Below are positions 1,126 to 31,015 of a stretch of 32,000 bases of DNA, piece by piece. This DNA is from Candidatus Lokiarchaeum ossiferum. Lineage in GTDB: Archaea; Asgardarchaeota; Lokiarchaeia; Sigyniarchaeales; Promethearchaeaceae. Location of the stretch: positions 3,090,001 to 3,122,000 of the forward strand of contig CP104013.1 in assembly GCA_025839675.1 (NCBI GenBank), read 5' to 3'. Under the pieces are notes generated by a model. It was not told where the DNA came from. It saw nothing but the letters and a program-made list of their open reading frames with translations, and did not search any database. The position numbers were made by a program, and so were the translations under genes. The first letter of the stretch is position 1. Every line of letters starts with the position of its first letter.

Positions 1126-1371
1126 CTATTTGCCACCGCTGATTTTTGGAAGCACAAGAATTTCATCATTCCTTTCAATTTGCATGTTGGAGTCTGCTTT
1201 TTGACCATTAACTAAAATTGCAAAATATTTGGTTTCAATATTTAATTTTTGTATTACATCATGGACTTTTGATGCATCTTTTACACGATAAGTAGTCATT
1301 GAAGAAATTTCATTCAATTTTTCCAATCCAACCATTCGATTCAATATTTTCCCTCCGATTAAATACGACAA
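1126..1371 (-). CDS. Small beta-grasp ubiquitin-like protein (ThiS/MoaD/SAMP family), C-terminus ...SGGK
   Basis: The C-terminal half ILVNGQKADSNMQIERNDEILVLPKISGGK matches the ThiS/MoaD pattern (VNG....d..l.dgDeV.i.P.vsGG). The track start is a TTG. An internal ATG (rc of 1333-1335, MVGLEKL...) is about 13 nt downstream of a GGAGG and may be the true start, giving about 69 aa. Confidence 0.65.
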   Translation of the reverse strand: MSYLIGGKILNRMVGLEKLNEISSMTTYRVKDASKVHDVIQKLNIETKYFAILVNGQKADSNMQIERNDEILVLPKISGGK

Positions 1372-11106: not shown

Positions 11107-12873
11107 TTATTTTGTTCTACTCCCACATTTGTTGCAAAACTTGAAATTTTTATTTAACTTTGCACCACAATTAGGACATTCAATCATATTTTTATTCGAA
11201 ACATCTCCAATAACAGAATGAGAAGTTCCAAAAATATTTGATTTTGCAGAAGTTACATTTGAAGGACCAGTGTTCGTTCCAGATGTAGTTTTTTTTAAAA
11301 AGGAAGGAATATAATCAGTTTGATTGGCAGATTTCTCAATGAATGGAGATCGACTTTCTTTATTTGTAGATTTGGGAATAATTGGTTTTTTATTGACATC
11401 TACATTTGACATAAAACCCCATGAAGTTTTTGGTTCTTTTTTTTTGATATTAGATTGAATTGAATCAGGTTTTGAAGGAGCATCAAAAAAAGAATAGGTT
11501 TTTTTCTTAGGAATGATGGATTTTGATTCGGTTGTTCCCTGTTTTGCTGGTAATGAATCTAAAAATGAATAGGATTTATTATTATCATTTGAAGATTTTT
11601 GAAATTCATTAGGTTTTTTTGGGCTGTCAAAAAATGAATAATTTTGAGTAGGTTTGATAATTTTTGGTTCTTTTTTCTCAGACCGAGTATTTCTAAAGTC
11701 AGGAGATGTAAATGGAGCAGGCTTCTTTGTATTTGATTTTGAAGATTGAGCGAGAAATGGGTTCCCTTTGATTTCTGATGAATTTCCAGATATGGATGAA
11801 GGAATGCCTTCTGAAGAAAATGATGGAGGAGAAGGTTTAGGGGGTATTTTTACAGTTGGTGGTTCTTGCTTCGAATTTGATGGAAATTGTGAATTAATTT
11901 GAACTGGAGGTAATTTGACCTCTGATTTTTTAGGAATATTTTGCTTTTGAATTGGGGTATTTTGAACGGGAGTTTTTGGTGAAAACCAATCAGGTTCTTC
12001 TACTATTGAAGATGTAAGAATATCATTACTTTTTTTCAATGCTTCTTTCTGAGGTTCCGAAGTAATATTTTCTTTAGAATTACCCAAAGACAATATTGAA
12101 GTCTCATCTATTTTCGGAATATTGAAAGGGTTGCTTGGTAATTTATTAGAAACAGGATTTTTTGATAATGAAGAATATATTGGAGCGGGTTTAGGTTTAT
12201 GAGAAACACTCGGCATAGGTTTATTTGATACTGGATCCTTAGGAGCAAACACAGGTATAGGTTGAGGTATTTTTTTTGAAATAGATTCGACGTCTATTGT
12301 TTTTTCATTATTAGGTTGCTCAGATAAGGAAGGAGAACCCCCTAACATTGCTGGAGGGATATCTTCTCCAATCATTAGCAAAGCAAGAATTCCAAAAACA
12401 TCTCCAACTCCATCTCCACTTTTCGCACTAGACTCAACATAAAACATGTTAAGATCTTTTGCAACCTCTTCAGCTTCATTTCTTGAAATAACCCTTTGAT
12501 CAACAAGATCTTTCTTATTTCCAACTAAAAGCATTGGAATAGAACCGGATTCCTTTTTAACCTCATCCATCCACTTAGGAATATGATCAAAACTCTCACG
12601 ATTTGTAAGATCAAAAAGAATGATACAACCCATTGAACCTTTGTAATAAAGAGGACGAACATACTGGAATCTCTCCTGTCCACCTGTATCCCATATTTGA
12701 AGTTTTACATTATGATTATTAATATGGATGGTTTTGACTGCAAATTCCACACCGATAGTTAATTTATAGTTTTCTTGAAAAAAGCCTTGACTAAAGCGAA
12801 CCACAAGAGCAGTTTTCCCACAGCCACCATCACCTACAGCAACACATTTAAATAGATAATCATAATTGTCCAA
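11107..12873 (-). CDS. Rab-like small GTPase with a ~390 aa low-complexity linker and a C-terminal zinc ribbon
   Basis: Rab-type N-terminus YDYLFK. G1 GDGGCGKT, switch I TIGVEF, G3 KLQIWDTGGQERF, YYKGS, G4 GNKKD, G5 SSAKSG. Residues ~171-563 are rich in P, S, K and N. The C-terminus is CPNCGAKLNKNFKFCNKCGSRTK. Confidence 0.9.
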   Translation of the reverse strand: MDNYDYLFKCVAVGDGGCGKTALVVRFSQGFFQENYKLTIGVEFAVKTIHINNHNVKLQIWDTGGQERFQYVRPLYYKGSMGCIILFDLTNRESFDHIPKWMDEVKKESGSIPMLLVGNKKDLVDQRVISRNEAEEVAKDLNMFYVESSAKSGDGVGDVFGILALLMIGEDIPPAMLGGSPSLSEQPNNEKTIDVESISKKIPQPIPVFAPKDPVSNKPMPSVSHKPKPAPIYSSLSKNPVSNKLPSNPFNIPKIDETSILSLGNSKENITSEPQKEALKKSNDILTSSIVEEPDWFSPKTPVQNTPIQKQNIPKKSEVKLPPVQINSQFPSNSKQEPPTVKIPPKPSPPSFSSEGIPSSISGNSSEIKGNPFLAQSSKSNTKKPAPFTSPDFRNTRSEKKEPKIIKPTQNYSFFDSPKKPNEFQKSSNDNNKSYSFLDSLPAKQGTTESKSIIPKKKTYSFFDAPSKPDSIQSNIKKKEPKTSWGFMSNVDVNKKPIIPKSTNKESRSPFIEKSANQTDYIPSFLKKTTSGTNTGPSNVTSAKSNIFGTSHSVIGDVSNKNMIECPNCGAKLNKNFKFCNKCGSRTK

Positions 12874-12980: not shown

Positions 12981-13832
12981 TTAATTTTTACTACCGCATA
13001 TAGGACAAATCTTCCAATTATTATTCATATTAGCTTTGCAAATAGCACATTTCTTATTAGTTTCGAGCACTTGAACATTTTTTAAATAGCTATTCTTTTT
13101 TTTAGGTGGTGAGGTCATTCTCCCATCAATAATTTGAGAGAAAGATAATAATGCGTTTTGGGATGATTCTAAATCCCCATAATCGGCCGAAAAAGGATTA
13201 TAAGGGATAATGGGTCGGATAACTTTACTTGAATCTATTTGAGAATTGGTTCCTTCTTCTTCAATTGGTTGATTTATATGAGAAATTTTATGAGTGTTGG
13301 CATCATTTTCGATAATCTCATTCTCACTTGATTTAATATTATGAGAAGATGCCGATCTATTAAATTCTTGCTTATCTACAGAAGATCTCTCTAAAATCAT
13401 TGTTTCTTCACCAACTATTAGATCTTGAACAACATTTTCGATAATAGACTCTTCTGCAGTAAGTTTATTATTGGAAGCTGATATTTTTGCGTCCGAATTT
13501 TCGTTTTTATTAGGAATTGATTCTTCATACAAAACTTCCTTCTGGCCTGCAATTTCAAAATAATATTGCCCATTATTATCATCAATATACTCTTTTCCAT
13601 CAGATCCAACAATTTTAAAAAGATAGAGGATCTTATTTCCAAATGGCACATTTGGAAGGGTTATTGAATATGAATGGCCCAAATTATTCATTTTTACAGA
13701 ATACCATGAATGAGCATTATCAGTACTAAAAATGAGAAATAAATTGGACAAATCACCTTCAATATTGCATTTTATTTCCACTGAAATTTTAGAATCAATT
13801 TCTGATTGTTGACTCATCCCAAGATTATTCAT
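12981..13832 (-). CDS. Hypothetical protein: N-terminal beta-sandwich-like domain (CBM-like), disordered linker, C-terminal zinc ribbon
   Basis: The N-terminal ~100 aa (VEIKCNIEGDLSNLFLIFSTDNAHSWYSVKMNNLGHSYSITLPNVPFGNKILYLFKIVGSDGKEYIDDNNGQYYFEI) resemble CBM20/48-type beta-sandwich patterns. The C-terminus is CAICKANMNNNWKICPICGSKN. It lies 108 bp upstream of the Rab-like gene on the same strand. Confidence 0.6.
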   Translation of the reverse strand: MNNLGMSQQSEIDSKISVEIKCNIEGDLSNLFLIFSTDNAHSWYSVKMNNLGHSYSITLPNVPFGNKILYLFKIVGSDGKEYIDDNNGQYYFEIAGQKEVLYEESIPNKNENSDAKISASNNKLTAEESIIENVVQDLIVGEETMILERSSVDKQEFNRSASSHNIKSSENEIIENDANTHKISHINQPIEEEGTNSQIDSSKVIRPIIPYNPFSADYGDLESSQNALLSFSQIIDGRMTSPPKKKNSYLKNVQVLETNKKCAICKANMNNNWKICPICGSKN

Positions 13833-14705: not shown

Positions 14706-15269
14706 TTAACGGGTTTTTAGATCAATTATCGCACGTGCTAAATCCCCATTCGCATCCTTCAGAGCTTTTTTTGCCACTTTATCAGATACTCCCGTTTGCA
14801 TGGCGACCAATTTAATATCTTCTTCAGTAATCTCAACAGATAGGGTTTCTTCGACATTCTCACTATTCTCAATAAAATTTTCATCTAGTATTTCGGCATC
14901 TTCGACACCAGAAGCAGAGATATCCTGCTCAGAATTTGATTCGTAAGCATAATTCCCCGCTGAACTTTCCTTAGCACTTCCTATTACTTGATATACTTCC
15001 ATTCCTTCTTGAACTACTTTAATAATTTGAGGTTCTTCAATGATTAAATCGTTTCCATCAGCACTTTGGATAATCACACGTTTTGCATCTATTTGTTCCA
15101 TGTTTTCCATTGCTTGTCCTTGTTGTTGCATCCTTCGTCTTTGTTGGCGATTCAATCCTTTTGTAGACGTTGCTCTTTGATTCATTGCGGCATTGCCTTG
15201 AGATCTTAGAGATTTACTCCTTCTTTTCTTTTGCTGCATTGATTTTGGTAATTTTCCCATTGCTATCAT
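14706..15269 (-). CDS. nac: Nascent polypeptide-associated complex protein (NAC domain plus C-terminal UBA)
   Basis: NAC beta-barrel pattern RVIIQSADGNDLIIEEPQIIKVVQEGMEVYQVIG and C-terminal UBA pattern EEDIKLVAMQTGVSDKVAKKALKDANGDLARAIIDL. The basic Q/R-rich N-terminus and the acidic linker are longer than in the archaeal NACs I recall. Confidence 0.8.
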   Translation of the reverse strand: MIAMGKLPKSMQQKKRRSKSLRSQGNAAMNQRATSTKGLNRQQRRRMQQQGQAMENMEQIDAKRVIIQSADGNDLIIEEPQIIKVVQEGMEVYQVIGSAKESSAGNYAYESNSEQDISASGVEDAEILDENFIENSENVEETLSVEITEEDIKLVAMQTGVSDKVAKKALKDANGDLARAIIDLKTR

Positions 15270-15878: not shown

Positions 15879-17105
15879 TTATGCATATAGAGTAAATCTA
15901 TCATGAGTCTTTTTTGATCCTTTAACAACTTTTGTTATTGCTTTTTTGAAATCGGTCACAAGAATTGTGTCAGATTCCCTACGGATTGCAAACATTCCAG
16001 CTTCCATTACAATTGCTTTAATTTCCGCACCAGTTGCCCCCTCAGTAGCAGATAAAAATTGTTTGAAATTCTGAGCTTTTTTCTCAATATTCATATTTCT
16101 AGTGTGGATATGAAAGATTTGGAGTCTAGCGTCTTCATTGGGAGGAGGAAACTCGATCAATCGATCAAATCTACCTGGTCTCAATAAAGCAGGATCCAAT
16201 ATATCTGGACGATTAGTAGCACCAATTATACGAACATCACCCCTATTATTAAAACCATCAAGTTCGCTAAGAAGTTGCATTAAGGTTCTTTGAACTTCTC
16301 TATCACCAGAGGTTGCAACTTGTAGTCTTTTTGAACCAATCGCATCAAGTTCATCAATGAAAATTATGGCTGGTGTTTTCTGGCGAGCCATATCAAACAA
16401 CTCACGTACCATTCGAGCACCTTCTCCGATAAATTTTTGAACTAATTCACTACCAATAATTCTGATGAAAGTCGCATTAGTTGCATTTGCTACTGCTTTT
16501 GCGATCATTGTTTTTCCAGTTCCAGGACTTCCAAACAATAAAATTCCTTTTGGAGGGGAGACTCCAACTTTTTTGAATATTTCTGGTTTTAATAAAGGAA
16601 GCTCCACCGTTTCTCGAACTTCTTGCAATTGATCTTCTAATCCACCAATATCATCATAAGTGTATTCTGATGGTTTTTCTTCAATTTCCATTACTTGCAC
16701 CATAGGATCAACTACACTTGGCAGACGTTCCATTACTGAAAAAGTTCTTTGATTTAATGCAACACGATCGTTTACTTTCAAAGTCTCAAAATCTACTTTG
16801 CGAGCAATATTAACAATAAAAGAAGGTCCTGAACTTGATTTTACAACTGCACGCTTATCAGGAAGTAAATCAGTTAAATTTGCAGAAATCAAAGGAGGTT
16901 GACGTAGTCGATCTAATTCTTGCCTTAAATTTGCCAAATCTCTTTGACTTGATAGAAGTTCTCGCTCTAATTTTGACTTGGTGGATTCCAAATTTCTTAA
17001 ACGTCGTTCCAAGTGTCTCGTATAAGTTATGAGGTAATTCGAATCTTTTTCTTTCTCAATTGGTATGTTTGAATCTTTATCCTTTTCAATAGCCATCCTT
17101 TTCAA
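15879..17105 (-). CDS. pan: Proteasome-activating nucleotidase PAN (Rpt-like AAA+ ATPase)
   Basis: N-terminal coiled coil and an OB segment. Walker A GSPGTGKT, Walker B IIFIDELD, second region of homology, and a C-terminal HbYX motif (LYA). Confidence 0.95.
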   Translation of the reverse strand: MKRMAIEKDKDSNIPIEKEKDSNYLITYTRHLERRLRNLESTKSKLERELLSSQRDLANLRQELDRLRQPPLISANLTDLLPDKRAVVKSSSGPSFIVNIARKVDFETLKVNDRVALNQRTFSVMERLPSVVDPMVQVMEIEEKPSEYTYDDIGGLEDQLQEVRETVELPLLKPEIFKKVGVSPPKGILLFGSPGTGKTMIAKAVANATNATFIRIIGSELVQKFIGEGARMVRELFDMARQKTPAIIFIDELDAIGSKRLQVATSGDREVQRTLMQLLSELDGFNNRGDVRIIGATNRPDILDPALLRPGRFDRLIEFPPPNEDARLQIFHIHTRNMNIEKKAQNFKQFLSATEGATGAEIKAIVMEAGMFAIRRESDTILVTDFKKAITKVVKGSKKTHDRFTLYA

Positions 17106-18237: not shown

Positions 18238-21440
<3,203 letters not shown>

Positions 21441-21968
21441 TTAATCAGGAACGAACCCTGATTACTTATCTGAGACGAATTGTCTCGAACGGTCTTCATA
21501 CTACTTCGTAGGTTATCAAAATCGTTGGGAGACTTTTGATAACCTGGAATTTTAATACAATAATTAATTGTTTTTGACTTAATATGCATTTCACGATCTA
21601 GTTACTTTGCATATATGTGTCGGTACAACATGTTATCCGAATTGAATGCTAATTGTAGTTCAAAAAGTAGAAGTGTACAAATTTAACACGAACATTGGAT
21701 CACTTTAACCTGATCAGATGTTACAAAACGAATAAGACTTTGCCATGGGACCAATGTTCATGCGTAAACGCATGCTGAACGGAGATTCGCCCGGATATTC
21801 CGACTATTCCAATCAAACTGAGTGGTGTTCTGTAACAGAACCAATAATCAGACCGATGCCTCAACGTTCCCATATCAACACGAGATCGATGTTTTTGGCT
21901 TGTTGTCGGTCAAAACATCGTCGCACTTTTGATATGCTTTTGAGATTAGATCGAGTTTGATAACTAAA
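21441..21968 (-). other. Putative pre-23S rRNA 5' leader (structured, more GC-rich than the surrounding spacers)
   Basis: It lies between a candidate TATA box (21993-22000) and the 23S 5' end. It contains several strong hairpins, for example CGATGTTTTG...CAAAAACATCG, CATGCG-TAAA-CGCATG and GGTTATCAAAA...TTTTGATAACC, plus the 5' halves of the flank pairings. The extent is inferred. Confidence 0.45.
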
Positions 21969-22254: not shown

Positions 22255-23598
22255 ATGAAAAATCCATTTAGTACCAAAATAATAAGAGAAAAAATAATAA
22301 TTTATTTAGATTTATCCAGTAAAGTTATATCAAAGAAAAATTTACTCAAAAACATCAATTCGTTTGTAATTGCTAAATTTGAATCAAATCCTCATCATGA
22401 TTTTAGCATTTTTTACTTTAAAGAGGGTGGAGAACCTGTTATTCAAGATGGATTAATTTCATCAAAAAGTGTCAAACAAGCAATTGAAATTGCATATGAT
22501 GAAAGATCTAATACTTCAAATTACTTTGAAAATGGACTTTTCTTTTGTTTAAGTGGCATTGCTTCTTCATTTTTAGCTCAAGCAATCACTTTTAGGATAA
22601 TAGTTTTTTCAGATTTACCAAGCGAAAAAAATACTCAATATATGGATGCATTGATGAACTTAGTCGAAACTGTTCGTACATTTCCAACTTTCATCGATAT
22701 TATAAGAATTGGAGATGAAAGATTATATTCTGATGATGTTAAATTACGAATAATTACAACACTTACAAATGGTGGTTTATTTTATATTAATTCAGCAAAA
22801 AACTTAAAAGAAGCACTTGCAGGTTTAGTTCATAATAAAATTCTTCCAGATTTAAGATCTGAAGGAGGTCAATCTATTTCAGATCAACATAAATTGTATT
22901 ACATGGATCTTTCCTTGGAATTAAATCAACCTCCAATCCATCAACGATTGAAGTTAAAATGCAATTTGTGTGAAGATGGATTATGCCAGTATTGCAATAA
23001 TTCGAGTGATCTCTTGAAAACATGTCCTTCATGCGGAATAGCTTTACATGAATGTTGTTCTGCTTTGTATTCATGGAATTATAATATCGGAATGAAAAAT
23101 ATATTTCGCTGTCCTAGTTGTGGCAGTTTAATTAGATTGGATGAAAAAACAGTATATCGAGTGAATGGAGTAGAATTTCTCAATGAAATTGGAGAAAATA
23201 CGAAAGAAAAAACTTTAGAACCGGAGGAAATTGAGGAAAGTTGGAAACCTGAATCAATTCAAAAACCAAAACCGATCAAAATACCGAGTTCTATCGGAAG
23301 ACAAACTAGCAATCACGAAACAAAAAGAAAACCCTTAAAAACTAAAATGGGGTTATTTGGACCACGACCTGTGCCGTCAAATCGTGATGTTGAATTCAAT
23401 CCAACAATAGAAAATAAAGATGATAGCTTGATAAAACCTGAACCACAAAAAAAAATAACAGTAGCAGAATTGCGATTGAGAAGAGAAAAGAGAAGAGAAT
23501 CAACCAAATCACAAGTAGTCGTGTGCCCAGTGTGTTCTTCTTATGCTAAACCAGGAACTGTCAAATGTCCAAAATGTGGATGTCCTATTAGATCTTAA
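22255..23598 (+). CDS. Rpn10/Ssl1-type VWA domain protein with a C4HC3 (PHD/RING-variant spacing) zinc finger, disordered linker and terminal zinc ribbon
   Basis: Residues ~12-195 resemble the Rpn10/p44 VWA: IIIYLDLSS...AKFESNPHHDFSIFYF...FRIIVFSDLPSE...FIDIIRIGD. Residues 236-289 read C-x2-C-x4-C-x2-C-x9-C-x2-C-x4-H-x2-C-x17-C-x2-C. The C-terminus is CPVCSSYAKPGTVKCPKCG. Confidence 0.7.
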   Translation: MKNPFSTKIIREKIIIYLDLSSKVISKKNLLKNINSFVIAKFESNPHHDFSIFYFKEGGEPVIQDGLISSKSVKQAIEIAYDERSNTSNYFENGLFFCLSGIASSFLAQAITFRIIVFSDLPSEKNTQYMDALMNLVETVRTFPTFIDIIRIGDERLYSDDVKLRIITTLTNGGLFYINSAKNLKEALAGLVHNKILPDLRSEGGQSISDQHKLYYMDLSLELNQPPIHQRLKLKCNLCEDGLCQYCNNSSDLLKTCPSCGIALHECCSALYSWNYNIGMKNIFRCPSCGSLIRLDEKTVYRVNGVEFLNEIGENTKEKTLEPEEIEESWKPESIQKPKPIKIPSSIGRQTSNHETKRKPLKTKMGLFGPRPVPSNRDVEFNPTIENKDDSLIKPEPQKKITVAELRLRREKRRESTKSQVVVCPVCSSYAKPGTVKCPKCGCPIRS

Positions 23599-23640: not shown

Positions 23641-24384
23641 CTATACATCGTAGGTTCCTTGAGATATCTCATATATTTTAAAAGAATTTTCACATTGAGC
23701 ACATTTTAATGTAGTAGAATCATTTGGACTAACGCTACCTGGAAATGAGAATCCCAAACCTTTTAAAAACAACGAATCACACTTTTCGCAACGAAAACAC
23801 AAATAGCCTTGATTTTTTTCTTTATAATAGTTAATGATTTCATTATCGGTCATTCCAGTTGAACCAAAAGAATAACTGCCGTTTAAATCATATTTTGAAG
23901 CCATGTAAAATGCATCTTCTCCATCTCGATAATAATGACCAATAATTCTGATTCGTTCGAATCTATGAAGCTTCTCGTAAAGAAATATCGCCCCAGCATT
24001 GGACACTCTAACTTCTAAGACATACTCTGAAATATTATATTTTGTAACAATTTCCATGCTTCTTTCAAGTAAGGCATTCGCAACACCAATCCGGCGAAAT
24101 TCAGATAAAACAGCCAAAGATACAAGATGGGCTTTTTTTACATAATCCAATCCAAATGAGGAAGGACCACGTTCAATTCTCCACATAATATAGCCAATTA
24201 TTTTCTTTGGATCATCTTCCAGATAAGCAAGTTGGAAAGAATCTGGATACCGTTCGAGAATTTGTTCATAGAAGAATAAAGGATAATTTTCAGGAAGAGT
24301 TGTTTCATTCACATCCATAACTAAGGAAATATCATCAGAAGTACATGGTCTCAAAGAGAACTTCGTATTATTCACTGCAGACAT
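23641..24384 (-). CDS. N-terminal acetyltransferase (GNAT, Ard1/Naa10/RimI-like) with a C-terminal Cys4 zinc-ribbon extension
   Basis: Acetyl-CoA motif RRIGVANALLERS and the NAT-typical YYRDGEDAFYM. The C-terminal ~60 aa contain CFRCEKC...CAQCENS. Confidence 0.8.
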   Translation of the reverse strand: MSAVNNTKFSLRPCTSDDISLVMDVNETTLPENYPLFFYEQILERYPDSFQLAYLEDDPKKIIGYIMWRIERGPSSFGLDYVKKAHLVSLAVLSEFRRIGVANALLERSMEIVTKYNISEYVLEVRVSNAGAIFLYEKLHRFERIRIIGHYYRDGEDAFYMASKYDLNGSYSFGSTGMTDNEIINYYKEKNQGYLCFRCEKCDSLFLKGLGFSFPGSVSPNDSTTLKCAQCENSFKIYEISQGTYDV

Positions 24385-29479: not shown

Positions 29480-29863
29480 ATGTCAATTAATATTTCAGGA
29501 GAAGGAATGGCAATTTTTGAAAATTTCGTTGTAAAAGCAACTTTTGTCTCCCTAAACAATAGCTATCTACTTATGGTTACGGATCAAGAACAATTTGGCA
29601 TAGGAACCGTGACCTTATCTAGTCCACCAACGGAATTTGGAACTAAAGCCACTAGTTCCCCATTTAATATCTTTGGAATGAAAAATTCAATGCTTTCCAA
29701 CGCAATTGGGAGAAATGCGAGTAAACATCTAAAAAAACCTGTACTATCTTTAGTTTTATTGGTAGAAAAAGACTTTAAGCAAGAAATTATCATTAAAACC
29801 ACAATGGAAGCGGTAAATAAGGCCATTGAAGATGTAATAAGCAAAGGAAATAATAAAATTTAA
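29480..29863 (+). CDS. Hypothetical protein, possible PAC4/PSMG4-like fold (speculative)
   Basis: 127 aa ORF. By-eye pattern similarity to human PSMG4 as I recall it: LLMVTDQEQFGIG vs VMRLTDSLFLWVG, and FGMKNSMLSNAIGRNASKHLKKPVLSLVLL vs LGDTSDTTSTGLAQRLARKTNKQVFVSYNL. Coding status is better supported than function. Confidence 0.5.
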   Translation: MSINISGEGMAIFENFVVKATFVSLNNSYLLMVTDQEQFGIGTVTLSSPPTEFGTKATSSPFNIFGMKNSMLSNAIGRNASKHLKKPVLSLVLLVEKDFKQEIIIKTTMEAVNKAIEDVISKGNNKI

Positions 29864-30487: not shown

Positions 30488-31015
30488 TTACTCTACTTGT
30501 TGAGCATAGTATATTAACCATTTGCTCATAGCAGTGAACATTGGTTCAATATTAAGGTTTAGCTTGGAAGAACACATCACATTCATCAAACAACTGGCAC
30601 TTTCCGCATATTGCTCTGCAACATTAATATCTACTTCGTGGTTTTCTAAATCATACTTATTCCCAACTAGAGTAATTGGAACCATCCCAGCATTTTCTCG
30701 AATTATCCGTAACCATTCAGGAATTTCTTCAAATGTCGCATAATCAGTGACATCATAACAGATAAATGCCCCACTGGCCCCACGACAATAATCACCTAAT
30801 AAAAAGCGAAATCGTTCTTCACCAGCAAAATCCCAAAGTTGCATTCTTACGTGCTCGCCTGTATCTAACGAAACATCTTTCACGCTAAATTGAGCTCCAA
30901 TGGTCATTTTATGATCTTCAATAAACGACCCAGTTACATATCGTTCAATTAAGGCAGTCTTTCCAACTCCCCCAGCACCCGCGACTACAACTTTAAAGAT
31001 CCAATTTGACGACAC
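30488..31015 (-). CDS. Small Ras/Rab-superfamily GTPase (domain only, no C-terminal Cys or extension)
   Basis: G1 GAGGVGKT, switch I TIGAQF, G3 WDFAGEERF, G4 GNKYD. 175 aa. Confidence 0.85.
   Translation of the reverse strand: MSSNWIFKVVVAGAGGVGKTALIERYVTGSFIEDHKMTIGAQFSVKDVSLDTGEHVRMQLWDFAGEERFRFLLGDYCRGASGAFICYDVTDYATFEEIPEWLRIIRENAGMVPITLVGNKYDLENHEVDINVAEQYAESASCLMNVMCSSKLNLNIEPMFTAMSKWLIYYAQQVE

Follow-up and report, generated by a model that had tools for sequence, protein, structure and literature searches.

A complete open reading frame, starting with ATG and encoding 447 amino acids plus a stop codon, occupies positions 22255..23598 (+) in the ORF list of the window, the whole 32,000-nucleotide stretch of Candidatus Lokiarchaeum ossiferum DNA analysed here. 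Its product is 100% identical to NEF87_002629 of that organism and has 252 representative relatives at E ≤ 1e-10. The initial annotation had described this frame as we find it, and the strings it quoted are present in the sequence. The DNA ahead of the frame is rich in A and T and has TATA-like runs 15-35 nt from the ATG. As that annotation also stated, the window contains a PAN gene and a Ubl gene; they lie at 15879-17105 (-) and 1126-1371 (-), and the latter encodes a ThiS/SAMP-like Ubl ending in ...ISGGK. Both lie on the strand opposite to NEF87_002629, PAN 5 kb away beyond a 23S rRNA gene and the Ubl gene 21 kb away with the rRNA gene in between. A weak PAC-like gene is also found in the 32-kb window.

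NEF87_002629 consists, in this order, of a VWA domain of the Rpn10/p44/p34 type, a C4HC3 finger, a disordered linker and, at the C terminus, a C4 zinc ribbon, and the modules named earlier (VWA, C4HC3-type finger, disordered region, terminal zinc ribbon) are thus all found. This architecture is a variation on the already known combination of a VWA domain with zinc fingers. The protein shows neither a signal peptide nor a membrane segment and is predicted to be soluble and cytosolic; a membrane protein was considered and rejected, the sole hydrophobic window being the buried helix α3 of the VWA domain. Single-sequence searches of Pfam, NCBIfam and PDB with NEF87_002629 returned only weak zinc-ribbon and bL32-like matches, and no VWA, PHD or RING model of Pfam matched the protein itself. 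Because zinc-ribbon matches swamped the comparison of the full-length family profile with PDB, the domain-specific profiles A3 and A4 were built. A role in anti-phage defence was rejected, as no PADLOC model matched NEF87_002629 or representatives of the tandem gene pairs described below. Full-text searches of the literature retrieved no account of an Asgard VWA-RING/PHD family; it may have been mentioned earlier in work on prokaryotic RINGs.

Residues ~10-195 (22282..22839, +) are confidently predicted to adopt a VWA fold. In the AF2 model, the element order β1-α1-β2-β3-α2-α3-β4-α4-β5-α5-β6-α6 follows the canonical VWA topology, with pLDDT values mostly of 87-96 and one 10-residue block at 81. 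The matches ranked first by Foldseek for NEF87_002629 are p44/Ssl1 and Tfb4 (E 4.7e-11 to 1e-9), with a probability of 1.0 against p44, Tfb4 and Rpn10 and TM scores of up to 0.78 to solved VWAs, specifically 0.75-0.78 for the p44 VWA alone and 0.66-0.71 for Rpn10. The alignments with p44/Ssl1 and Tfb4 span ~350 columns; at an RMSD of 13-20 Å against full-length p44, the superposition holds only domain by domain. Additionally, the VWA-only family profile A3 retrieves Rpn10/PSMD4 (8.7e-11), p44 (6.7e-7), BABAM1 (1e-5) and Tfb4 (1.4e-5) from PDB; the extracellular VWAs of complement C2, anthrax toxin receptor and integrin rank below these, and the alignment with Rpn10 includes the K-x-x-SNP and FIDIIR/VDIINFG motifs. 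The assignment to the Rpn10/Ssl1 class made in the initial annotation, including both motifs it quoted, therefore agrees with structure and profile alike. The homology of NEF87_002629 to curated VWA models appears transitive, running through the family VWA profile and the distant relative P0219, which profile A1 found at 1.4e-25 across VWA plus finger and which scores above threshold against Pfam VWA_2 (72 bits), VWA (48.7 bits) and Ssl1 (30.7 bits). Within PDB and Pfam, the VWA domain is closest to Rpn10, p44 and p34; the ranking is valid for these two databases only, because a search across the protein universe for prokaryotic VWAs that might outrank Rpn10 brought up just 6 family fragments with the VWA profile, and nothing with the finger profile.

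The β1-loop motif D19-L-S-S-K23 (22309..22323, +) is a degenerate MIDAS, as had been noted from the sequence, compared with the canonical DxSxS that the distant tier of relatives retains (for example, 'LDISRSM'). D19 is kept in 47/53 relatives and 39/53 have T or S at position 21, whereas an intact MIDAS (DxSxS ... T ... D) is absent, the third Ser and the Thr having been lost and D19 and D120 kept. Membership of the VWA superfamily does not demand a MIDAS. The family-conserved VWA residues, D19, E92-N93-G94, D120, S123, R151 and D160, sit at the C-terminal ends of strands and the N-terminal ends of helices, that is, on the MIDAS face. The domain is followed by a linker (residues 196-231, 22840..22947, +) in which AF2 places a conserved helix at residues 210-219 and in which I208, Y216, A220 and L223 are conserved.

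The finger (residues 232-296, 22948..23142, +) emerges from conservation, a domain model, profile comparison and Pfam as a C4HC3 variant of the PHD/RING class, the class to which it had been assigned. Its sequence has the spacing C244-x2-C247-x9-C257-x2-C260-x4-H265-x2-C268-x17-C286-x2-C289, with C236-x2-C239 upstream. The initial annotation had let the C4HC3 pattern begin at C244; the spacing stands, but the first pair does not, since the true one is C236/C239, which it had regarded as extra. Among 230 finger-covering relatives, which extend down to ~20% identity, the eight core positions read CCCCHCCC in 208 and CCCCHHCC in 11 (219/230 together), so that the Cys/His positions are conserved in relatives, and the ligand pattern lies far beyond chance. 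Because C236/C239 form an invariant first pair and C244/C247 are missing from whole subgroups, the predicted core ligands are C236,C239 / C257,C260 / H265,C268 / C286,C289, which would be paired in cross-brace fashion. C244/C247 co-vary with D252 and C267, and these four residues would most probably make up a third, accessory zinc site; the finger probably carries three zinc ions.

Structure and sequence place the finger differently within its class. The isolated domain model (pLDDT 86.5) has a 10-residue helix after H265, and its Foldseek neighbours are the RINGs of NSE1, RNF4, Slx1, TRIM2, EL5 and APC11. On the other hand, the best PDB matches of the finger profile are PHDs (MTF2 1.7e-6, 1wev 1.7e-5, DPF3 3e-5), with the RINGs of Arkadia, Doa10 (1e-3) and FANCL also matched. 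Among 36 finger segments, Pfam PHD was matched by 24 and zf-RING_2 by 19. Three relatives pass the PHD threshold (PF00628, 24 bits) over the full model with 31.6, 31.1 and 26.4 bits; the finger of NEF87_002629 has no match to the PHD model at E<0.1. The best RING scores, all from relatives, are 25.9 bits for zf-RING_2 (threshold 27.3), 26.8 for SLX1_C (27.2) and 24.6 for Prok-RING_1 (29.1), and no curated RING threshold is passed by any relative or by NEF87_002629. In the 219 fingers with the conserved core, positions of the E2-contact type are kept (C1+2 hydrophobic in 97%, C6+4 aromatic in 97%, C7+1 Pro in 61%), a linchpin Arg/Lys at C8+1 is absent, and PHD hallmarks are present, namely F/Y ahead of the His in 70% and, in 95%, a Phe two positions before C7. 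The family finger has the PHD spacing, C4HC3 with C-x2-C-x4-H-x2-C, and many subgroups bear a RING-like 'H-x2-C-x3-W' signature. Taken together, the finger lies between PHD and RING, its sequence leaning towards PHD and its structure towards RING.

The NSE1 vRING, the C-terminal RING of SLX1 and RING-CH (Doa10/MARCH) have the same ligand order as the family finger, which, taken in isolation, structurally matches NSE1 best (probability 0.99, rmsd 2.8 Å, 29% identity); however, these lack the accessory Cys3-Asp site and the invariant F-R-C motif of the family, and the scores against C4HC3 RING variants all stay below threshold, the SLX1_C score coming from one relative. PHD fingers such as those of MTF2, DPF3 and KMT2D share the C4HC3 order, the C-x2-C-x4-H-x2-C spacing and the aromatics before the His and C7, but usually lack the long helix after the His. 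In the three-zinc RING-H2 of Rbx1/APC11, the third zinc site comes from an insertion that separates ligand pairs one and two. APC11 matches the finger structurally (TM 0.69, rmsd 2.9 Å), yet that finger of Rbx1/APC11 is a RING-H2 rather than C4HC3 with a Cys3-Asp accessory site, and NEF87_002629 has no cullin partner.

Beyond the finger, residues 310-420 (23182..23514, +) form a linker predicted from pLDDT and composition to be disordered. Here the earlier description of a basic disordered region is matched by pLDDT values below 50 at residues 313-396 and by a pI of 9.65 over residues 310-420, with an acidic N-terminal and a basic C-terminal end. The linker aligns poorly among relatives and contains a short motif, G366-L-F-G369 (23350..23361, +; family consensus G-[FLY]-F-G), in which G366 is kept in 124, F368 in 138 and G369 in 121 of ~144 relatives with the region. 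The protein ends in a C4 zinc ribbon (residues 421-447, 23515..23595, +; C424-x2-C427-x10-C438-x2-C441), predicted by AF2 at pLDDT 86-90, with weak Zn_ribbon and bL32-like matches. As expected of the terminal ribbon proposed before, C424, C427, C438 and C441 are invariant in 53/53 relatives.

The family of NEF87_002629 is multi-copy and confined to Asgard archaea. Gene neighbourhoods were compared at 84 loci, to which two were added later (86 in all). Two family genes stand in tandem in 65/84 loci, and the first (pos1) and second (pos2) genes represent two distinct, anciently diverged orthologous groups, with ~67% identity within each group and ~40% between partners; the two-paralog pair is kept in at least 63 genomes. 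Such pairing is compatible with an obligate hetero-pair. NEF87_002629 itself belongs to a third clade and is single-copy at its locus. The conserved neighbours encode a CDP-alcohol phosphatidyltransferase, LOR, Rho_N/HeH, HEAT, DeoC, an aminotransferase, EamA and HypB, whose functions are unrelated, and the long shared synteny was treated as inherited gene order; a conserved, divergent neighbour of 659 aa matches nothing in Pfam, PDB or PADLOC. Across the 86 loci, no ubiquitin, E1, E2, JAB, proteasome, XPD or XPB gene recurs beside the family, and no TFIIH gene is linked to it. The proposal that NEF87_002629 is a component of an Asgard Ubl/proteasome or TFIIH-like system is therefore unsupported, as none of these genes is linked in the 86 loci and PAN and the Ubl gene of the window lie 5 and 21 kb away. 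In MK-D1, Harpocratesius and L. ossiferum alike, members of the nearest paralog clade (P0007-type) adjoin both an actin gene and a gene for an Arf/Ras-family GTPase, and an Arf/Ras GTPase gene lies directly downstream of P0004, a 54%-identical ortholog.

We tentatively favour the explanation that NEF87_002629 is a bridging adaptor, in its preferred version a RING-variant E3-like ligase or adaptor. For the binding partners, oligomerization and any catalytic role of the protein, we infer the following arrangement. One partner protein would dock on the VWA domain, at its conserved MIDAS face, and a second on the finger, so that NEF87_002629 would bridge two partners within an assembly of several proteins, in which it would probably oligomerize with paralogs from the same family. 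In the most probable version, the RING-variant finger would recruit E2~Ub/Ubl to the partner held by the VWA domain. The adaptor is supported by modules that are modelled by AF2 and matched by Foldseek, by profiles and by relatives above Pfam thresholds, and also by a finger that preserves both its core and its E2-contact-type positions. Docking through the VWA domain is supported by the clustering of its family-invariant residues on the MIDAS face, and oligomerization with paralogs by the frequency of the tandem pair, an argument that covers NEF87_002629 only by extension because its gene is single-copy. The nearest relatives, Rpn10, p44, p34 and BABAM1, are non-enzymatic subunits of large complexes, which likewise supports an adaptor role. 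Against the explanation as a whole stands the failure of NEF87_002629 itself to match a VWA, PHD or RING model.

The E3-like version meets further objections. Known archaeal and bacterial RING E3s reside in Ub-like operons, and none of the ubiquitin, E1, E2, JAB or proteasome genes is linked to the family in the 86 loci; additionally, there is no linchpin Arg/Lys after the last Cys, the PHD hallmarks are present, and three relatives pass the PHD threshold and none a RING threshold. PHD fingers are not E3 ligases. As for precedent, plant proteins are reported, RGLG1/2 (PMC7155146) and WAV3/SOR1 (PMC5924906; see also PMC11047095), in which a VWA domain shares a cytosolic polypeptide with a RING-type finger and which show E3 activity. 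The RINGs of these ligases are canonical C3HC4/RING-H2, and RGLG has a copine-like VWA that binds Ca2+; the plant proteins are not among the top structural or profile matches of the NEF87_002629 family.

Rather than an E3-like adaptor, the protein could be a non-catalytic VWA-finger subunit in the manner of p44-p34, with the finger of one paralog seated on the VWA domain of another to form a hetero-oligomeric platform regulating another enzyme such as a helicase or ATPase, which we consider unlikely, though the best placed of the alternatives. Like NEF87_002629, p44 (GTF2H2/Ssl1) and p34 (GTF2H3/Tfb4) of TFIIH carry an intracellular, MIDAS-poor VWA domain followed by zinc fingers, and they are a paralogous VWA-finger pair, as is the Asgard tandem pair kept in so many genomes. 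The top Foldseek matches over ~350 columns, the Pfam Tfb4 matches of three family members and the Ssl1 score of P0219 speak for such a subunit, and the binding of the p34 VWA to the p44 RING, as reported in PMC5737387, provides a precedent for it and for the preferred adaptor alike. However, p44 combines a C4 finger with a C4C4 C1_4 RING where NEF87_002629 has a C4HC3 finger and its probable accessory site; p44 also lacks the long disordered linker and terminal ribbon, and superposes only as separate domains. Pfam Ssl1 (PF04056), Tfb4 and C1_4 have no match in NEF87_002629, C1_4 is not among the listed matches, Ssl1 is not among the top families of 53 close relatives, and in P0219 the Ssl1 score (30.7 vs 27 bits) is exceeded by that of the generic VWA_2 (72). 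NEF87_002629 is therefore not a p44 member, having no Ssl1/C1_4 match and a C4HC3 instead of a C4C4 finger. Furthermore, neither XPD, XPB nor another recurrent enzyme is linked, and the NEF87_002629 gene is unpaired.

It is rather improbable that the finger is a true PHD reader of a histone or other peptide tail, with the VWA domain as its tether, in an adaptor for chromatin or peptide marks that is not a ligase. The PDB profile ranking, the Pfam segment counts with three relatives above the curated threshold, and the aromatics before the His and C7 all point to a PHD, but the structural neighbours are mostly RINGs, the central helix after H265 is RING-typical, and the 'H-x2-C-x3-W' signature recurs in many subgroups.

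A proteasomal receptor like Rpn10, its VWA domain on PAN/20S and its finger or ribbon capturing Ub/Ubl-tagged substrates, is very improbable. Of all PDB sequences, Rpn10/PSMD4 (S5a) matches the profile of the VWA domain best (8.7e-11), aligning at K-x-x-SNP and at FIDIIR/VDIINFG and likewise having a degenerate MIDAS, but this ranking may reflect how few prokaryotic VWAs PDB contains; PAN, the SAMP-like Ubl and the weak PAC-like gene share the window. Rpn10, however, has UIM helices and no zinc finger, and docks on the 19S lid, which to our knowledge is absent from archaea. NEF87_002629 is not an Rpn10 member, there being no UIM among the Pfam families listed for it or among the 25 most frequent in 53 relatives, and neither PAN nor Ubl, unlinked in the window, recurs near relatives. 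Least probable of all is an adaptor of Sec23/24-like logic, in which a VWA-fold trunk and a zinc finger would cooperate with an Arf-family small GTPase on cytoskeleton or membranes: the GTPase and actin genes beside the P0007-type clade and P0004 would favour it, but no GTPase adjoins NEF87_002629 or the tandem-pair clades, a GTPase next door in 2 of ~6 contexts may be a coincidence in Asgard genomes, which are very rich in small GTPases, and a Sec23/24 relationship was rejected, with Sec23/24 absent from the top 50 matches of Foldseek and the top 60 of the profile, a different domain order, and none of the extra folded domains (β-sandwich, helical, gelsolin) in the AF2 model.

We know of no recognised archaeal counterparts of Rpn10, p44 and p34, and a widespread Asgard family whose VWA domain is nearest to these proteins in PDB offers a concrete candidate for their origin. 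That this Asgard-only family is the stock of eukaryotic p44/p34 and/or Rpn10, with a finger intermediate between PHD and RING and a p44-p34-like pos1/pos2 heterodimer, is a long shot in our estimation; if true, it would add the family to the eukaryotic signature proteins, among which it has so far gone unrecognised. Prokaryotic RINGs are rare and PHD is regarded as essentially eukaryotic; the family straddles their boundary, some members passing the PHD threshold and others falling less than 1.5 bits short of RING thresholds, and so offers a route to studying how the two fingers diverged. Because the family occurs in the cultured organisms P. syntrophicum MK-D1 and L. ossiferum, partners, zinc content and E3 activity are directly testable. 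Even if the family were no more than a lineage-specific scaffold, over 250 clusters of 'hypothetical proteins' would still gain a usable annotation.

The window gene (22255..23598, + strand) starts with ATG and encodes a 447-aa protein that is 100% identical to the hypothetical protein NEF87_002629 of Candidatus Lokiarchaeum ossiferum, whose automatic UniRef name is "VWFA domain-containing protein". The G+C content around the gene is ~30%, the same as in the remainder of the window with the exception of the 23S rRNA gene. Searched by itself against Pfam and NCBIfam, the protein has no VWA, PHD or RING match and displays only weak C-terminal zinc-ribbon and bL32-like similarities. The initial annotation had described an Rpn10/p44-type VWA domain fused to a C4HC3 finger, and every sequence feature it listed is present: DLSSK at residues 19-23; the spacing C244-x2-C247-x9-C257-x2-C260-x4-H265-x2-C268-x17-C286-x2-C289, with C236-x2-C239 upstream; and a disordered basic region followed by a terminal zinc ribbon. 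Specifically, residues 313-396 form a low-confidence segment in the AlphaFold2 model, residues 310-420 have a pI of 9.65, and the ribbon cysteines C424/C427/C438/C441 are invariant in 53/53 aligned relatives. The protein comprises four modules, all conserved in a family of several paralogs. Within the otherwise unalignable linker, a G-[FLY]-F-G motif (23350-23361, residues 366-369) is conserved at equivalent positions in relatives and matches no known short linear motif; in the clades encoded by tandem gene pairs, the motif is longer, R-[IV]-G-G-F-F-G-K-x-Y-T-V-K-K-x-G-D-K-L-V-Y.

The VWA domain (residues 10-195) is predicted by AlphaFold2 from a 53-sequence alignment with pLDDT mostly 87-96 and the canonical VWA strand/helix order. 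Its top Foldseek matches in the PDB are TFIIH p44/Ssl1 and Tfb4/p34 (E 4.7e-11 to ~1e-9), with TM scores of 0.75-0.78 to the isolated p44 VWA, 0.66-0.71 to Rpn10 and ~0.62 to vWF A1. A VWA-only profile, built from 24 diverse family members and searched against the PDB, ranks Rpn10/PSMD4 first (8.7e-11), followed by S. pombe Rpn10 (1.2e-8), p44 (6.7e-7), BABAM1 (1e-5) and Tfb4 (1.4e-5); complement C2, anthrax toxin receptors and integrin I-domains rank lower. Its alignment pairs the two motifs singled out earlier, K..SNPxx, and FIDIIRIG with VDIINFGEE. Additionally, the Helarchaeota relative P0219, found by the family profile over VWA and finger (E 1.4e-25), exceeds the Pfam thresholds for VWA_2 (72 bits), VWA (48.7) and Ssl1 (30.7). 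The proposed Rpn10/Ssl1 class is supported, and "closest to Rpn10/p44" applies only within PDB and Pfam, the former holding few prokaryotic VWAs. The canonical DxSxS MIDAS is kept in the distant family tier but lost in the window subfamily; the MIDAS face, which carries the family-invariant residues D19, E92-N93-G94, D120, S123, R151 and D160, is likely the binding surface of the domain.

The finger (residues 232-296) displays the ligand pattern C-C-C-C-H-C-C-C in 208 and C-C-C-C-H-H-C-C in 11 of the 230 family sequences covering its eight positions, a conservation that places the pattern beyond chance. Six of the eight ligands first assigned (C257, C260, H265, C268, C286 and C289) stand, whereas the first pair is the invariant C236/C239 rather than C244/C247. 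Entire subgroups have C244 and C247 deleted or replaced, and lose C267 along with them; of the 141 sequences retaining this trio, 132 have Asp and four have Cys at position 252, which is variable in the 78 lacking it. Because of this co-variation, the binuclear core is read as C236,C239 / C257,C260 / H265,C268 / C286,C289, and C244/C247/D252/C267 would bind a third, accessory zinc in the loop that separates the first and second ligand pairs, where the third zinc of Rbx1/APC11 also sits.

Modelled alone (residues 225-308, pLDDT 86.5), the finger shows one beta-hairpin bearing C257/C260/H265 and another hairpin bearing C286/C289; a helix of 10 residues starts right after H265. Its Foldseek neighbours, with the weak E-values expected at 84 residues, are overwhelmingly RINGs, namely NSE1 (probability 0.99, rmsd 2.8 Å), APC11 (TM 0.69), RNF4, Slx1, TRIM2, EL5, TRIM23, FANCL and Listerin, with PHDs few in number. 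A finger-only profile instead matches PHD fingers best, MTF2 (1.7e-6) and then 1wev and DPF3, with Arkadia, the Doa10 RING-CH, FANCL, EL5, Listerin, NSE1 and SLX1 following at 5e-4 to 2e-2. Among 36 diverse finger segments, Pfam matches comprise PHD (24), zf-RING_2 (19), Prok-RING_1 (18), SLX1_C (9) and the NSE1-type zf-RING-like model (6). Over the full length of the PHD model, three relatives score 31.6, 31.1 and 26.4 bits, above its curated threshold of 24, and others fall narrowly below the RING thresholds (zf-RING_2, 25.9 vs 27.3; SLX1_C, 26.8 vs 27.2). Across 219 sequences, RING-like positions (C1+2 hydrophobic, 97%; C6+4 aromatic, 97%; C7+1 Pro, 61%) coexist with PHD-like ones (F/Y before His, 70%; Phe two residues ahead of C7, 95%); the linchpin Arg/Lys is absent, and a family-specific Arg, R285, precedes C7 in 217. 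Taken together, the finger leans RING by structure and PHD by sequence with mixed diagnostic positions, so that the earlier assignment to the C4HC3 cross-brace type at the PHD/RING-variant boundary is supportable.

Searching 1.84 billion representatives with the family profile recovers 252 proteins at E<=1e-10, including ~1,100-aa forms and the MIDAS-bearing distant tier, and all named members are Asgard (Promethearchaeota, Lokiarchaeia or Helarchaeota). With one genome scanned per GTDB species, 143 relatives are found, of which the 80 listed are all Asgard, P. syntrophicum MK-D1 and Harpocratesius repetitus among them. Six long members (P0174, P0176, P0178, P0184, P0189 and P0192; ~1,090-1,120 aa) carry ~650 extra C-terminal residues without a Pfam match and a ~45-residue charged insertion in the VWA; for P0174, PADLOC gives a very weak DndD-like (coiled-coil/SMC-like) match. 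In 65/84 loci, two family genes lie head to tail (L013-L083, e.g. L015:9803-12700; L001:4484-7350; L002:6001-8737), and the first and second genes form separate orthologous groups of 63 members each, ~67% identical within each group and ~40% between partners. By these comparisons the pair is an ancient duplication held in fixed order, and this retention suggests that its products act jointly. A third clade, which shares ~34% identity with either group, includes the window protein and splits into two sub-lineages, the window type (P0001-P0006) and the P0007 type.

Rpn10, p44, p34 and BABAM1, the nearest VWA relatives, all serve in large complexes as docking subunits without enzymatic activity, and the finger combines PHD hallmarks with a hydrophobic patch of the kind used by RINGs for E2 binding. 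VWA+RING E3 ligases are described in plants (PMC7155146, PMC5924906), and the p44 RING is reported to be bound by the p34 VWA (PMC5737387). For these reasons we favour, at somewhat under an even chance overall, a bridging adaptor that probably oligomerises with family paralogs, its MIDAS face binding one partner and its finger a second; the most probable specific version would be an E3-like ligase. The p34-p44 contact would also suit a purely structural pair of that type, which we consider possible at clearly lower probability. A PHD-type peptide reader, in keeping with the PHD-first profile matches and set against the RING-leaning fold, is doubtful.

An Rpn10-like proteasome receptor, which the VWA ranking would suit, is improbable on genomic context. 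The PAN gene and Ubl gene noted initially are both in the window: PAN (15879-17105, - strand) lies 5 kb from the window gene on the opposite strand, beyond the rRNA gene, and the latter is probably the 81-aa ThiS/MoaD/SAMP-like protein ending in ...ISGGK (1126-1371, - strand), 21 kb away. Neither is a recurrent neighbour of the family in relatives, and at none of the examined loci is the family linked to a gene for ubiquitin, E1, E2, JAB, the proteasome, XPD or XPB. Gene positions therefore lend no support to the suggested membership in a Ubl/proteasome or TFIIH-like local system; the initial interpretation is supported for the architecture but not for the system membership. The window also encodes a NAC+UBA protein (14706-15269) and a 127-aa protein (29480-29863, + strand) that matches PAC_bac, a bacterial proteasome-assembly-chaperone-like family, below threshold (E 2e-4, 21.4 vs 27 bits); none of these proteostasis genes, PAN included, adjoins another. 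Just upstream of the window gene, a complete archaeal 23S rRNA gene (18257-21441, - strand) stands alone; Rfam detects no 16S or 5S rRNA in the whole 32-kb window, and the rRNA genes appear unlinked here. A defence system was rejected, PADLOC giving no match.

Recurrent neighbours of the tandem pair encode CDP-alcohol phosphatidyltransferase, LOR, Rho_N/HeH, HEAT, DeoC, class-III aminotransferase, EamA, a HypB-type GTPase and an unannotatable ~659-aa protein whose gene is always divergently adjacent; the annotated ones have unrelated functions, and the arrangement is read as inherited gene order. Several conserved neighbours at other loci (LOR, HEAT proteins) bear N-terminal zinc ribbons. Convergent with the window gene, 42 bp past its stop codon, lies a GNAT acetyltransferase gene (23641-24384, - strand) whose product has a ~70-aa C-terminal extension with two zinc-ribbon-like CxxC pairs; the same gene follows the window ortholog at L085. 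The ortholog P0004 (54% identical) shares downstream GNAT, phosphopantothenate synthetase, aRF1, GHMP kinase and amino-acid kinase genes. Several unrelated window proteins (11107-12873, -; 12981-13832, -; 22255-23598, +; 23641-24384, -) end in a zinc ribbon or paired CxxC motifs, in many cases after a long stretch of low complexity, as if this were a module appended repeatedly in the L. ossiferum genome.

A small-GTPase-coupled adaptor is the least probable reading, a very unlikely one, although the P0007-type sub-lineage, the nearest paralogs, adjoins an actin gene and an Arf/Ras-family GTPase gene. This arrangement is seen in MK-D1, Harpocratesius and a second L. ossiferum genome; GTPase-context loci are L084:4824-8359, L004, L005, L006, L007, L010, L001 and L085:853-3379. 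A 326-aa Arf/Ras GTPase gene directly downstream of P0004 is missing in the window, which holds two Ras/Roc/Arf-family small GTPase genes elsewhere (11107-12873, -, with a ~420-aa C-terminal extension ending in a zinc ribbon; 30488-31015, -).

We found no description of the Asgard VWA-PHD/RING family in the full-text literature searched, a scope outside which the key prokaryotic-RING paper falls. VWA plus a RING-type finger is an already known eukaryotic layout; what is new is its Asgard-wide, multi-paralog version, with a finger intermediate between PHD and RING that carries a putative accessory Cys3-Asp site, a linker motif and terminal ribbon, and a conserved hetero-pair gene arrangement.
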